Source: Edaphobacter aggregans
GTDB taxonomy: Bacteria > Acidobacteriota > Terriglobia > Terriglobales > Acidobacteriaceae
Assembly: GCF_003945235.1 (NCBI RefSeq)
Contig: NZ_RSDW01000001.1
Location: 4,230,001-4,262,000, forward strand
Length of the DNA stretch: 32,000 nt
Direction of reading: 5' to 3'
In this document: in pieces, positions 27,944 to 31,976 of the stretch
Numbering within the stretch: position 1 is the stretch's first letter
Layout of the letters: each line of letters starts with the position of its first letter
Notes under the pieces: model-generated
Told to the model about the DNA's origin: nothing
What the model saw: the letters and a program-made list of their open reading frames with translations, nothing else
Databases searched by the model: none
Position numbers and translations under genes: made by a program

Positions 27944-28549
27944 GTGGAAAATCGGACAATAATATACTCCCTGAGATACGGATCTGCTGCCGTCGCCATC
28001 ATAGCTATTGTCGCTGCTTCAGCTTTCGCAATTGCCTTAGCTCTCATTATCTATGCAGTAGTACGGCAAAGCATTTCTCCCACACGCGGAGCCTACCTGA
28101 TCGTACTGATTGCTTTATTCGCATTGAGTTTCACGCTCTTCCTCGAGAATTTGCTCAGAGGTGGACGATTAGACGTTGAGAGCAATTGGGGCGGCTTAGG
28201 TGGCGGTCTTAGTGGATGGCGAGTCTCCGGCCCTCTCGCATTCTTATTTCTGTCCATCGGACTGTTCGCGCTGCTGGTGGCTGCCATTAGCAACGATCCA
28301 CCCCACCCGGATCTCTGGGAGCGCTACCGTGGCGCTCTTAATTTCGCGGCGCAGAATGGTATCAAATTCGAGAAGCGTGAGGTCGTGGGAGGCAAATTAC
28401 TGCTGAAGGGAACAGCGCCGTCACAGGCGGTGGAGGACGCATTCTGGACTCAAGTGAAGCTAGCCAACCCGCTTTACGATGATATCGTCCCTGATCTATC
28501 CATTAAGGCGCCCGCAGGTGCTCCGGGCGCGGCTGGAGTGGTGAAGTAA
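27944..28549 (+). CDS. Membrane protein with three predicted TM helices and a C-terminal BON-like soluble domain
   Basis: The start is GTG at 27944, with no in-frame ATG. Hydrophobic segments are AAVAIIAIVAASAFAIALALIIYAVV, AYLIVLIALFALSFTLFLENLL and PLAFLFLSIGLFALLVAAI. The C-terminal GIKFEKREVVGGKLLLKGTAPSQAVEDAFWTQVKLANPLYDDIVPDLSI resembles a BON domain (V-x-V-x-x-G-x-L-x-L-x-G-x-x-x-S-x-x-x-x-x-x-A). Its stop overlaps the next start (TAATG, 28547-28551). Confidence 0.7.
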   Translation: MENRTIIYSLRYGSAAVAIIAIVAASAFAIALALIIYAVVRQSISPTRGAYLIVLIALFALSFTLFLENLLRGGRLDVESNWGGLGGGLSGWRVSGPLAFLFLSIGLFALLVAAISNDPPHPDLWERYRGALNFAAQNGIKFEKREVVGGKLLLKGTAPSQAVEDAFWTQVKLANPLYDDIVPDLSIKAPAGAPGAAGVVK

Positions 28550-30669
28550 TGCCCGATGAACCACTTTATGGTTTGGAATATGACCCCTATGGCTTTGAAT
28601 TGGAGCCTGCGGCGGAGCAACGTCGGAAAGTATTGGCACGCTCTGCAAACCTTGATATGGCTGTGGGCGCATTGACCGCCTATATGTACGAGAGAGTTGG
28701 AGGGCGCAGTTGCTTGATCGCAGGCGCTAGGGGTTCTGGCAAGACAACTTTGGTCGACCGTGCATTTGAAGATGTAAAGCGCGGTCCCAACGCAGCTCGC
28801 AGACCTATCCGTGTGCGACTGCACGGTCCCTCTCTCCTTAATCCTCCTCAACCTATCCCCACAAAAGATGATCCGAGCCCACCTAAGATTAGTGTTGCTG
28901 AGCACGTCATAAAGACCTTGGTGATCAACCTCTACCAGACCGCCGCCGAAGAAGTATCCAATGCCTTCAAGGATTACGTGGCGGATTATGGGCAGGATTG
29001 GGGCGAATTTGCGGCGCAACTCCGTCTGACGCTGGATGGAGCACCATCGGCTGCCACATTGCGGTTTTTCTGGGAGAGGGCGGGAGCGCTGCCCGGAGGC
29101 GTATTGTTTCCACGGCTCACGTCTGAATCGCAGCGCGGTGACGATGAGCAGTTCACTACCAATCAGGGGATGGCCGAAATTGTGGCTCTGGCCACGGCCG
29201 CCGAGGCGTATCGAAGCTGCGCCGGACAGTACAAGCAGGAAAAAAAGGACGCGAAGTCGGTTGGAGATAAGGCGGAGACTAAAACCCAGTTCAGCGCCAG
29301 CGGCAAAGAATTTTCGCAGACCCTAATTGGATTGGCGACAGGCGTGTCCGCAGGAGCGACGGCTGCGGCGCTGGGTACGAGCAAGCCGACTGTAGCCCTG
29401 GCTGGTGCAATCACTGCACTCGCGTCCATGGTAACGCTTAGCTACACGAGGACGCGGAGCCGCGAAACCACGTTGAAGGAGGAAGTCACATTTCTTCCCG
29501 ATCTGAGCGTTTCGGCCCTCGTACATCGCGTCGTACTGCTGCTTCGCAGGCTTCGGCAAGCCGGTATCATCCCAATTTTCGTCATTGACGAACTCGACAA
29601 AGTGGAAAATCCAGTCAGGCCTCTTAACGAGCTCACAAGCAGCCTGAAGTTCTTGTTTGCGGATGAAGGCTTTTTCTGCTTTTTGACTGACCGGACTTAC
29701 TTTGCCGAAATCGGCCGACTGAATCGTCAACAAGTAAATACGCAGATCAGGACCATCTATACCAACCAGATGCTGGTTCGTTACGACACGTCAGACATCC
29801 GCGAGTTTTTGAAGCAGGTAATTCGTCCTTCTGAGGATGTCCGTGACTCAAACAGGAATGAGCTGGAGGCTGACGCTGAAGCATTCCGCTACATTGTCAT
29901 TTGCCGCTCACGAATGCTGCTCTTCGAGATGTCCAGGGACTTAGCGGGCTTCAGCAGGCCCGACGGGCGTCTAAAACTCGCATTCAAAGCTCCCCGCGAG
30001 AACTTGGGACACCAATTCCATTTGGCCGTGCAACTTGCTATAGAGCTGGTGCTAACGAACGAATTCGTGGCCAACAGGATCAGCCGAGACGCAAATTTCG
30101 CGCAGACAATCTATGACGCGCTTTATTACCCCGTGAATCTCTGGTATACCGACGAGCGGCGGGTGGATTGCTCACAGATCGCCTTGATAGACGGGATTAG
30201 TGCAATAACGGGTGAGTCCCTTAGTCTGGAGGAACCCGACCAGGATTTTCTTCATACCCAGGTGAAAGCCGTGCTGGAACTCATTGCCGACTTACCATAT
30301 TTGGAGGAACGGCTTCGTGCAGCATTTCGATCGAATCGGTTGGTTGTCGCAGATGGGATTCTTGGCCGACTTCTTGACGCTATCCCGAAGGAGATTCGTC
30401 TGTTGAAGGCTGTGCCGGGCGCTGAAGACGTGTATCAGTGGGATTACAATCGCTCCGGCATTCCCTATGAGGCATCTGTCATCCAGGACATTCAGGACAA
30501 CAGACCGTTATGGGATGCCTACGCAACCATCGGGGCTCTGGTGAAATCGGTGGCTGAAATAGTTGCTAGGCGCTCTACTGTGGACGAGGTTCTCTCTGGC
30601 CTTTCAGAGGCAGAAAGCGTTACTAAATTGTTGGCGGGCCTTTTAATACCGATCGGAGCAAACTCGTGA
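28549..30669 (+). CDS. KAP-like P-loop NTPase (hydrophobic segments inserted between Walker A and Walker B) with a long helical C-terminal domain
   Basis: Walker A is LIAGARGSGKTT (about 28722-28748) and Walker B is IPIFVIDELDKV (about 29572-29601). Between them lie two Ala/Gly-rich hydrophobic segments, LIGLATGVSAGATAAALG and TVALAGAITALASMVTLSY (29323-29445). An insertion of this kind is the defining feature of the KAP family as described by Aravind and colleagues. The gene is translationally coupled on both sides. Confidence 0.75.
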   Translation: MPDEPLYGLEYDPYGFELEPAAEQRRKVLARSANLDMAVGALTAYMYERVGGRSCLIAGARGSGKTTLVDRAFEDVKRGPNAARRPIRVRLHGPSLLNPPQPIPTKDDPSPPKISVAEHVIKTLVINLYQTAAEEVSNAFKDYVADYGQDWGEFAAQLRLTLDGAPSAATLRFFWERAGALPGGVLFPRLTSESQRGDDEQFTTNQGMAEIVALATAAEAYRSCAGQYKQEKKDAKSVGDKAETKTQFSASGKEFSQTLIGLATGVSAGATAAALGTSKPTVALAGAITALASMVTLSYTRTRSRETTLKEEVTFLPDLSVSALVHRVVLLLRRLRQAGIIPIFVIDELDKVENPVRPLNELTSSLKFLFADEGFFCFLTDRTYFAEIGRLNRQQVNTQIRTIYTNQMLVRYDTSDIREFLKQVIRPSEDVRDSNRNELEADAEAFRYIVICRSRMLLFEMSRDLAGFSRPDGRLKLAFKAPRENLGHQFHLAVQLAIELVLTNEFVANRISRDANFAQTIYDALYYPVNLWYTDERRVDCSQIALIDGISAITGESLSLEEPDQDFLHTQVKAVLELIADLPYLEERLRAAFRSNRLVVADGILGRLLDAIPKEIRLLKAVPGAEDVYQWDYNRSGIPYEASVIQDIQDNRPLWDAYATIGALVKSVAEIVARRSTVDEVLSGLSEAESVTKLLAGLLIPIGANS

Positions 30670-31976
30670 CGCCAACCGACCCAATACCTTTCGACCCCGA
30701 GTTGCTCGAGGTATATGGAATTATTCGAAGCACTCCCGCCTGGAAGGATGTGAAAGATTCCATGGCGCGCCTGGCCCCATTGCGCCAACCAGCGGCAAAG
30801 CCATACGATCAGATGGACCTGGACCGGGACAACGTATTGCGGTATGCGGGAATCCTGCGCAATTCATCTGATTCCATAGCCTATGCGATCTGCTTAGCGG
30901 CACACTTAGCCCGGTTTTCCAAGACGCAGGTATTCGAACAACGCCTGAATGAGGGGTTCCAGGCGCTCTCGACAGGGCTGGACCTCCCTGCTCTGGCCGA
31001 GGCCGACACCCGGACAGAGCTGGATCGATGCCTACGCGGAGTATTTCCGAACCAGAAGATTGAGCTGCCTTCGCTGCGTGCACCCGCTCCCGCTCCCGCG
31101 CCAGATGCTCCGCAGCAACCACGCCCAACATCCGAAACCCCCGATGTGGAATCTGCTGCCGCGCCCAGTGGGGACCCAGCCGCAGATGCGTGGCGCAACG
31201 CGCTGGAGAGAGTGCTCACCCAGATTCGGGACATGGACCCGCTGAATATCGATAGCGTGATTCAGAAGGCATACGATGTCTGGCAAGCTAGACTGATGGC
31301 CTTCTTATCGACCCAGCCTGAAGTCCCGCCCGACATCGATTATTTGCGCTGTCGTGCATTGAATCTACCGCCGGGGATGATCCTGCGAGGGCGTCTCAAG
31401 AACGTTAGCCTTCGCGAATGGAACGAGGCCTTCGTCGCCGGCATGTCGGAAACCGGTGTGACTTTCCCGGTTCCCCTTTGGTTTTCACTGGCAGCGCTTG
31501 GTGCGCTGGGGTTCGACGTTCCCCGAGATCTGAGTTCGGTTAAGTCAGCGGAGGAAAACAAAGCGGCTAGCGAGTTCATCTCGAAGATCCCACAGACTAG
31601 TCCCCCAAAAGGTCTGCTCATACTCCGGGTGACCGCCGAGTCACAGACTGCAGGCTGGAACATCTCCACTAGCATGCCAACCCTGATCATCACTCCCACA
31701 GACTTCCTCCGCGAAGGCAAGGCGAACCTGCAGTCTTATTTCCAGCCGAGACTGCACGGAGTCTTGATCGAGGTGGGCCGCGACGAGCAGCCGGCTGCAG
31801 CGTTAGCTCGCGCGAATGGCGCCGCAATCAAGGAAAAGCTTCCATCAGTACGATTGGGATTCTTGATGGCTGCGCAGCCTCAGAACGCAGTCCTGCCGTC
31901 GGGCTATAATAGTTTCGCAATAATGCCTACTGACGCGATGGATGCGTATACAAAGGCGTTCATGTCTACGTCATAA
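30666..31976 (+). CDS. Hypothetical protein, 436 aa, no recognisable domain; third gene of the coupled cassette
   Basis: GTG 30666 overlaps the upstream TGA (GTGA, 30666-30669). The ORF is uninterrupted, with a Pro/Ala-rich linker (RAPAPAPAPDAPQQPRPTSETPDVESAAAPSGDP) separating an N-terminal helical part from a C-terminal alpha/beta-looking part. The stop at 31974-31976 is followed by AAAAAAGC, close to the window edge. Confidence 0.65.
   Translation: MTPTDPIPFDPELLEVYGIIRSTPAWKDVKDSMARLAPLRQPAAKPYDQMDLDRDNVLRYAGILRNSSDSIAYAICLAAHLARFSKTQVFEQRLNEGFQALSTGLDLPALAEADTRTELDRCLRGVFPNQKIELPSLRAPAPAPAPDAPQQPRPTSETPDVESAAAPSGDPAADAWRNALERVLTQIRDMDPLNIDSVIQKAYDVWQARLMAFLSTQPEVPPDIDYLRCRALNLPPGMILRGRLKNVSLREWNEAFVAGMSETGVTFPVPLWFSLAALGALGFDVPRDLSSVKSAEENKAASEFISKIPQTSPPKGLLILRVTAESQTAGWNISTSMPTLIITPTDFLREGKANLQSYFQPRLHGVLIEVGRDEQPAAALARANGAAIKEKLPSVRLGFLMAAQPQNAVLPSGYNSFAIMPTDAMDAYTKAFMSTS

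Follow-up and report, generated by a model that had tools for sequence, protein, structure and literature searches.

A conserved three-gene module encoding a predicted membrane-associated AAA+ ATPase in Edaphobacter aggregans

Organization and distribution of the cassette

The 32,000-nt stretch of the Edaphobacter aggregans chromosome studied here (contig NZ_RSDW01000001.1, hereafter the window, meaning this stretch at its full length) carries a cassette of three open reading frames (ORFs) on its forward strand, that we designate A, B and C. They code for a small membrane protein with a glycine-rich loop, a predicted AAA+ ATPase and a mainly helical protein, respectively. All three ORFs, and the stop/start overlaps TAATG and GTGA that join them, were found where an earlier note on this DNA, made from the letters alone, had placed them (Table 1). 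A Shine-Dalgarno-like motif precedes each start codon, AAGGGG 8-13 nt before that of A, GGAG 11-14 nt before that of B and GGAG again 8-11 nt before that of C. The order and tight spacing of the three genes recur in unrelated contigs and phyla, so that the arrangement is far beyond chance, and we consider it very likely that A, B and C make up one functional unit.

Table 1. Coordinates of the cassette features and of the adjoining transposase relic (positions in the window; residues in the respective protein)
Feature	Position	Strand	Basis or detail
Gene A	27944-28549	+	ORF, GTG start, 201 aa
Gene B	28549-30669	+	ORF, ATG start, 706 aa; locus EDE15_3556
Gene C	30666-31976	+	ORF, GTG start, 436 aa; locus EDE15_3557
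A/B junction TAATG	28547-28551	+	Stop TAA of A and start ATG of B share one base
B/C junction GTGA	30666-30669	+	Start GTG of C overlaps stop TGA of B
Invariant Gly-rich loop of A, residues 79-95 (E-S-N-W-G-G-L-G-G-G-L-S-G-W-R-V-S)	28178-28228	+	Alignment and model
C-terminal soluble domain of A (residues about 122-187) and low-complexity tail	28307-28549	+	AF2 model
Walker A of B, residues 59-67, GARGSGKTT	28723-28749	+	Conserved almost without exception in alignment A1
Walker B of B, residues 343-351, IFVIDELDK	29575-29601	+	Invariant D347, E348, D350 and K351
Hydrophobic helical hairpin of B, residues 257-300	29317-29448	+	Hydropathy, charge pattern, AF2 helix
IS3-family transposase relic (OrfB, rve/rve_3), 5'-truncated	27290 to about 27874	-	Context, outside the module

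The NCBI annotation gives A a length of only 141 aa (P0133), with a start about 60 codons downstream of the GTG used here, by which the first transmembrane (TM) helix and half of the second are lost. The 201-aa form is backed by the AAGGGG motif and by homologs that align from about residue 14-19.

Word-indexed searches retrieved 105 homologs of B, 50 of A and 27 of C, nearly all of them unannotated proteins from soil metagenomes. The A-B-C order was retained in three further contigs, with gaps or overlaps of 0-6 nt between the genes, and the flanks of these contigs were wholly unlike one another and unlike those of the window. Identity to the window proteins was 61% (A), 68% (B) and 59% (C) in one contig and 40%, 44% and 31% in another, C being the least conserved of the three, above all when set against B. 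The triad is therefore found outside this genome, in other contigs and phyla, and its flanks are heterogeneous rather than a conserved housekeeping context, both of which the earlier note had offered as points on which its idea of a cassette could fall.

The distant relatives of B (about 30% identity) are 1000-1300 aa long and have an additional C-terminal region that is homologous to C, as seen when C was compared with the fused proteins (E down to 4e-20 with phmmer and down to 9e-45 with hmmsearch). This "Rosetta stone" fusion indicates that B and C act as one protein, and what had been described as an orphan partner turns out to be, usually, the C-terminal region of the ATPase itself. An exhaustive profile search over 1.84 billion cluster representatives returned 1,755 family clusters (50% identity) at E <= 1e-3 and 780 at E <= 1e-30, counts that refer to the whole B-C family, since B columns had stayed in the profile. 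Of the top 150 clusters nearly all had the fused form, indicating that the split B and C of the window are the minority form. Among 185,579 species-representative genomes scanned there were 89 relatives, distributed over Acidobacteriota, Gemmatimonadota, Bacteroidota, Verrucomicrobiota, Planctomycetota, Myxococcota and the Alpha-, Beta- and Gammaproteobacteria. The family is thus rare and patchy across at least 8 phyla. One Myxococcota bin, P01_E01_bin.52, carried the module twice, on separate contigs (L066 and L076), indicating that paralogous copies can coexist.

A hidden Markov model (HMM) of the A family matched the gene directly upstream of B-C in 61 of 80 genome loci. Six of the remaining 19 had no upstream sequence, and the other 13 had upstream sequence with no match to the model. 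In most of these 13 (at least 11, read by eye) a divergent small ORF stands upstream of B-C and has the succession TM helix, Gly-rich loop, TM helix, with loops such as RHWGSFGxESTGW or LGGG. The biggest cluster of neighbouring genes spanned just 6 of the 80 loci and no other family recurs by the module. Since only the A-like gene recurs beside B-C, the system consists of A plus B-C and nothing else. The three products very probably associate physically, given that most relatives have B and C fused and that the gene directly upstream is almost always A-like. The same two facts bear out the view of the earlier note that the three genes are one unit.

The contrary explanation, that the overlaps are incidental or that at least one of the ORFs is no real gene, we hold to be extremely improbable. 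Overlapping starts are indeed common in compact operons, NCBI has the shorter version of A, and scans for promoter and terminator consensus sequences around the cassette gave nothing above chance. Nevertheless, many full-length homologs exist for all three proteins, their order is conserved across phyla and the fusion of B and C prevails among the relatives. In addition, the AlphaFold2 (AF2) models are confident, with a mean predicted local distance difference test (pLDDT) score of 85 both for A and for P0035, the fused homolog that stands in for B-C.

Predicted structure of the three proteins

Judged by its sequence, B is probably an AAA+ ATPase of the ORC/Cdc6-STAND type with a helical C-terminal half. 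Both Walker motifs are intact and, like the sensor-1 strand, invariant or almost so in the family. Walker B is followed by the sensor-1 strand LKFLFADEGFFCFLTDR (FFCFLTDR), and VRLHGPSLL, NLYQTAAEE and AAQLRLTLDGAPS are further conserved blocks in alignment A1; an arginine finger was not identified in B. In Pfam searches with 33 members of the B family, AAA_16 matched 31, nSTAND5 24 (best E = 2.6e-5), ORC-CDC6-like 21 and NACHT 13, all four below their family thresholds. With the window protein itself AAA_16, ORC4 and similar models picked up the Walker A region only, and so did the B family profile against the PDB sequences, where ORC4 was found at E = 1.3e-4. B had been called KAP-like in the earlier note. 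KAP_NTPase (PF07693) gave no match to the window protein at E <= 1 and matched just 3 of the 33 members, below threshold (best E 0.0099), so that what stands of the likeness is the architecture, namely hydrophobic helices inside the NTPase domain. No YobI family matched B in Pfam or NCBIfam at E <= 1, nor was one among the 25 most frequent families of the 33 members.

The structure of B-C was taken from the homologous fusion P0035 (pLDDT 84.7, predicted TM-score 0.69), and whole models were used as Foldseek queries. In the ATPase core the elements run b1-a1-b2-[long helical insert]-b3(Walker B)-b4-b5 and then into a helical bundle, an order that fits the ORC/Cdc6 clade. The top Foldseek neighbours of the fusion model were RdrA, BrxC, ORC4, Cdc6/Orc1 and an "archaeal ATPase", all of them weak (E 0.01-0.3).

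The long insert after strand 2, between Walker A and Walker B, ends in a hydrophobic hairpin made of two helices (residues 257-277 and 282-300) and a four-residue turn, with many Gly, Ala, Ser and Thr residues and hardly any charge. Its flanks are strongly charged (K+R averages 3.5 just after helix 2). A hydrophobic pair of helices is found at the same position in all 94 homologs with recognisable Walker motifs, and the mean best Kyte-Doolittle values of the two helices in these 94 proteins are 1.76 and 1.42 (19-mers). From this pattern the hairpin is a probable membrane anchor; because both of its ends are charged, they would lie on the same side of the membrane.

The C region of the fusion model consists of about eleven helices and then a small three-stranded alpha/beta subdomain, and a P/A-rich linker of variable length follows the first third of the protein. 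The columns of C that are conserved out to the fusions are W176, W206, L227, W252, P270, W272, L278, L281, G282 and F283, residues of a structural and not a catalytic kind. No relative of C was found in Pfam, PADLOC, PHROGs or PDB. One of seven long members examined, the 1549-aa B-C protein P0295, has a C-terminal WD40 beta-propeller at about residues 1271-1516, which is by analogy a STAND-like sensor arrangement.

The AF2 model of A (pLDDT 85), considered together with hydropathy, has TM helices at residues 4-40, 46-71 and 96-116, and a beta-hairpin (78-81/91-94) between the second and the third. This hairpin carries the motif ExNWGGLGGGLxGW. In an alignment of 37 sequences W82, G83, G84, L85, G86, G87, G88, G91, W92 and S95 were invariant and E79 and N81 nearly so. 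Invariant residues of the family are found only in this hairpin loop, while the rest of A varies, and A-like genes in distant phyla retain the Gly-loop motif. The C-terminal domain (alpha-beta-beta-alpha-beta, residues 129-187 in the model) has a generic fold, and in distant relatives it gives way to a P/A/K-rich tail behind two TM helices. The description of A as BON-like did not hold, as Pfam BON gave no match to A at E <= 1 and DolP was found by Foldseek only at E = 0.66. No structure in PDB or BFVD matched the A model at E <= 1e-3. The weak matches were ZnT/YiiP at about 1e-2 with a TM-score of 0.29, and SpoIIIAH, EscJ and DolP at 0.3-0.7; a profile search of the PDB sequences with A returned noise alone (ATP synthase b). 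Homology to ZnT/YiiP was considered and rejected, the likeness being merely that of TM helices plus a ferredoxin-like C-terminal domain. The charge counts of A (net +1.2 in loop 1, net -0.4 in the Gly loop) weakly suggest a topology with loop 1 and the C-terminal domain in the cytoplasm and the Gly loop in the periplasm.

Genomic surroundings

Upstream of A the window has the relic of an IS3-family insertion sequence (IS) on the opposite strand. It has no OrfA, stop codons lie past its 5' end, and the truncation at about 27874 puts the end of the relic 65-70 nt from the start of A, in agreement with the figure of about 70 nt first given for this distance. The OrfB frame goes on for about 120 nt past the listed ORF, reading "...GLAFKKRPQRKRK...APNQAWSIDFVADQ". 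The break point of the relic suggests that a rearrangement or insertion event set the left border of the cassette. Scans of the surroundings of the cassette found no tRNA, Rfam family or meaningful repeat. The cassette has a GC content of 55.1% (A 53.6, B 53.9, C 57.7) and the window as a whole one of 56.9%. The cassette had been thought more AT-rich than the locus of an extracellular contractile injection system (eCIS) that lies upstream, and this is weakly so, the eCIS block having 58.2% GC; the adjacent giant glycosyltransferase gene, with 54.0%, is similar to the cassette.

The eCIS locus occupies positions 52-19620 of the window and codes for Baseplate_J, Tail_P2_I, an AAA ATPase and an eCIS_core/DUF4157 protein. 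Amid the unannotated ORFs of its structural block there is a gene for Lgt (prolipoprotein diacylglyceryl transferase, PF01790, E = 1e-41) at 10381-11322 (+), an unusual passenger for a contractile injection system locus. The eCIS_core (DUF4157) ORF at 15514-19620 (+), of 1368 aa, overlaps as listed the upstream AAA ATPase gene (13445-15559) by 46 nt, and may have been called too long at its GTG start. Directly downstream of the eCIS_core and TPR proteins follows an ORF of 2011 aa (20700-26735, +) with two GT2-type glycosyltransferase regions, a Caps_synth/Gly_transf_sug region and two S-adenosylmethionine (SAM)-methyltransferase domains; it is this gene whose GC content, given above, falls below that of the eCIS block.

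The proximity of the two loci raises the question of whether A-B-C could be an accessory of the eCIS, for example a release, lysis or regulatory cassette. Both are in the same window and on the same strand, the cassette begins 8 kb downstream of eCIS_core, and a cassette that perturbs the membrane could release particles. However, between the two lie a TPR gene, the glycosyltransferase/methyltransferase gene of 6 kb, a stretch of 1.2 kb that is non-coding or relic DNA, and the IS fragment in the opposite direction. Furthermore, no eCIS, phage-tail or baseplate family was found among the called neighbours of six other module contigs, and there was none in the 25 most frequent Pfam families of 108 flanking genes from 73 genomes. 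We reject this role, which we rate as very improbable, because no eCIS context was seen around the module in these other contigs and genomes.

The neighbours in the six contigs and the 108 flanking ORFs are heterogeneous and mostly metabolic, envelope or housekeeping genes, including response regulators, outer-membrane barrels, TonB-type outer-membrane proteins, amidohydrolases, peptidases, penicillin-binding proteins, radical SAM enzymes and kinases. PADLOC matches among the flanking ORFs were sporadic and generic (one Dam-type methyltransferase, kinases and radical SAM enzymes). Such heterogeneous flanks speak for a self-contained module that was acquired independently, and they bear no defence-island signature. 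Downstream of one of the A-B-C triads (L003:14842-17878) more than 10 very small ORFs (60-90 aa) on the same strand come after genes with DnaA_N and CSD domains, a run that looks like the early region of a prophage or mobile element.

Searches of Pfam, NCBIfam, PADLOC and PHROGs with A, B and C gave at most matches local to Walker A. PADLOC-DB v2.0.0, which presumably carries a model of the Tmn system considered below, had no family for A or C and for B just P-loop noise (JetC, mad8 and RtcR, E about 0.03). A literature search for the motif and the architecture found no account of the family. The suspicion that the set corresponds to no named defence or transport system has thus been upheld in PADLOC 2023, Pfam, NCBIfam and PHROGs. 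The A-B-C module matches no described family, and its partner with the ExNWGGLGGG loop is without counterpart in the Tmn and KAP systems. Since none of the three is in Pfam or NCBIfam, A, B and C deserve family definitions.

Proposed function and comparison with known systems

Altogether, A-B-C is likely to be a membrane-embedded ATPase complex. In the mechanism that we infer, with its membrane insertion, contact between A and B, channel activity and role in defence, B would be anchored in the inner membrane by the hairpin that emerges from within its ATPase core, keeping the catalytic domain in the cytoplasm. C, fused or separate, would be a fast-evolving, non-enzymatic helical arm of B and most likely its sensor or regulatory region, as it is the least conserved of the three, keeps only residues that are aromatic, hydrophobic or structural, and in one member bears a WD40 domain. 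A would be the output element through the loop between two of its TM helices, because this loop is invariant across phyla while the remainder varies. Many channels have selectivity filters of this design, a loop with Glu, Asn, Trp and Gly set between a pair of TM helices; CorA with its GMN loop and MCU with its DIME loop are comparable cases. By this resemblance we propose that A forms or lines an ATP-gated conduit. A might oligomerise, alone or with the hairpin of B, into a conduit for ions or small molecules. Once C recognises a trigger, B would bind and hydrolyse ATP and change its oligomeric state, and this change would open or remodel A in the membrane, leading to growth arrest.

The picture as a whole, a membrane-embedded sensor ATPase with a channel-like partner and a role in conflict or abortive infection, is one that we put forward tentatively. 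That the module is a defence system acting through membrane permeability, an argument made by analogy, is possible but somewhat doubtful. Several observations weigh against this interpretation. The hydropathy of the hairpin in the window B is borderline (1.39 and 1.57) and AF2, which makes the hairpin helical, does so with pLDDT below 50, a low value that is often seen for membrane elements modelled without a membrane. Instead of crossing the membrane, the hairpin might be buried or take part in protein-protein interactions. The positive-inside signal behind the topology of A is weak. The Foldseek search of the B-C fusion model against PDB gave no match at E <= 1e-3, which implies that there is none for its C part either. 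Finally, the look of a defence cassette, that the earlier note had ascribed to the three genes, was not seen in their genomic context: the 108 flanking ORFs had no enrichment in defence, integrase or transposase genes (in a survey without matched control), there was no homolog of B in 50,697 phage records and only one in 72,556 plasmid records, a Burkholderia replicon of 1.95 Mb.

These last results would also suit a module with no part in conflict. In this reading, the chief rival to ours and one that we think rather unlikely, B-C would be an ATP-driven regulator or assembly factor that controls A as a small channel or scaffold in ion homeostasis, envelope stress or membrane remodelling, and large-genome bacteria of soil and freshwater would retain the module as an accessory trait. 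The neighbours are mainly metabolic, envelope and regulatory genes, without enrichment in defence or mobile-element genes, and the module sits on chromosomes, with next to no occurrence on plasmids or in phages. In addition, C is without catalytic or toxin-like residues, and the TM-flanked Gly-rich loop resembles a pore loop, which suits a regulated channel. On the other hand, a rare and patchy distribution with no conserved flanks fits a horizontally moving accessory or conflict element better than a core function, C evolves fast and has one variant fused to WD40, and the module adjoins an IS relic in the window. Moreover, the nearest ATPases (RdrA, BrxC and nSTAND5) and the analogues (Tmn and KAP) are defence proteins. 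With the sensor ATPase as our provisional preference, a bolder formulation can be given, to which we attach a low likelihood: the module would represent an undescribed class of two- or three-component machines, in which an ORC/Cdc6-STAND-type AAA+ ATPase sends a small-residue hairpin from its catalytic core into the membrane and so gates A, the loop of A is the selectivity filter and the ATP-gated conduit for ions or small molecules serves abortive infection or growth arrest. Such a class, extending over at least 8 phyla, would be unrelated in sequence to Tmn, KAP or the catalogued defence systems.

In either case the family is of interest. If it is defensive, it would be a new system from soil phyla that are under-sampled by defence catalogues; if it is not, it would be a new ATP-regulated membrane or channel module. 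The split (B plus C) and fused forms point to where the functional boundary between sensor and ATPase lies, and the putative output A is tiny, separate and has a sharply defined motif, so that it can be mutated, swapped or reconstituted alone. Tmn/YobI and KAP membrane NTPases were recognised as anti-phage devices only very recently, and the present family offers a way to dissect the coupling of ATP turnover to an output at the membrane. The general principle of membrane-inserted NTPase systems has already been set by them; the A-B-C family itself is sizeable and wholly unannotated.

Among the known systems, the BON and ring-building-motif proteins (DolP, SpoIIIAH and EscJ) share with the C-terminal domain of A the alpha-beta-beta-alpha-beta order, with the poor E values reported above, but the TM-score with DolP is 0.26 and the domain is dispensable in distant relatives of A. 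RdrA of RADAR and BrxC of BREX are the best, though weak, structural neighbours of B-C (Foldseek E = 1.2e-2 and 7e-2). Each is a large AAA+ ATPase that forms rings or scaffolds, has a helical C-terminal region and partners with a second protein, and some RADAR loci include a small membrane protein. Unlike them, however, the module has no deaminase (RdrB), PglZ or methyltransferase partner, and neither RdrA nor BrxC has a membrane hairpin; with TM-scores of 0.15-0.25 the matches fall short of significance, and the PADLOC models of both systems do not match. The STAND NTPases (Avs/NLR-like) offer the same tripartite logic, an NTPase with a variable C-terminal sensor, and the WD40 member would conform to it. 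Nevertheless, no STAND family threshold was reached, an N-terminal effector domain is missing, with a separate membrane protein as the putative effector, and the insert of B after strand 2 is like the HEH/ISM insert of ORC/Cdc6 and not a STAND feature.

The KAP defence NTPases are closer in general plan. They are membrane-associated P-loop NTPases, as predicted here for B, and each is linked or fused to a C-terminal region that is uncharacterised yet required if the protein is to work. Defence by the KAP systems published so far relies on their Walker motifs. Their TM helices differ from those of B in number and position, and the published KAP systems are without a conserved A-like partner. 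Tmn belongs to the YobI NTPases; its P-loop domain holds two TM helices, and its sensor arms are helical. The protein assembles into a decamer around a central pore, and when it senses a phage protein it exports Mg2+ and brings about plasmolysis (PMC13001434). The N-terminal NTPase of the module is likewise predicted to have two hydrophobic helices between Walker A and Walker B, and its long, variable and mainly helical C-terminal region with an alpha/beta subdomain is the putative sensor. Neither has accessory Pfam domains, both have variable genomic contexts, and a membrane-level output is plausible for the module too. Unlike Tmn, a single-gene system with no conserved operon partner (PMC13001434), the module has the small membrane protein A as an obligatory partner, and in Acidobacteria C is a separate protein. 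Furthermore, there is no detectable sequence relationship with Tmn, the core of B appears to group with the ORC/Cdc6-STAND AAA+ proteins, and its hairpin is unusually rich in Gly, Ala, Ser and Thr. By analogy, then, the A-B-C module is functionally most like the Tmn/YobI and KAP defence NTPases, yet not a detectable member of either family.

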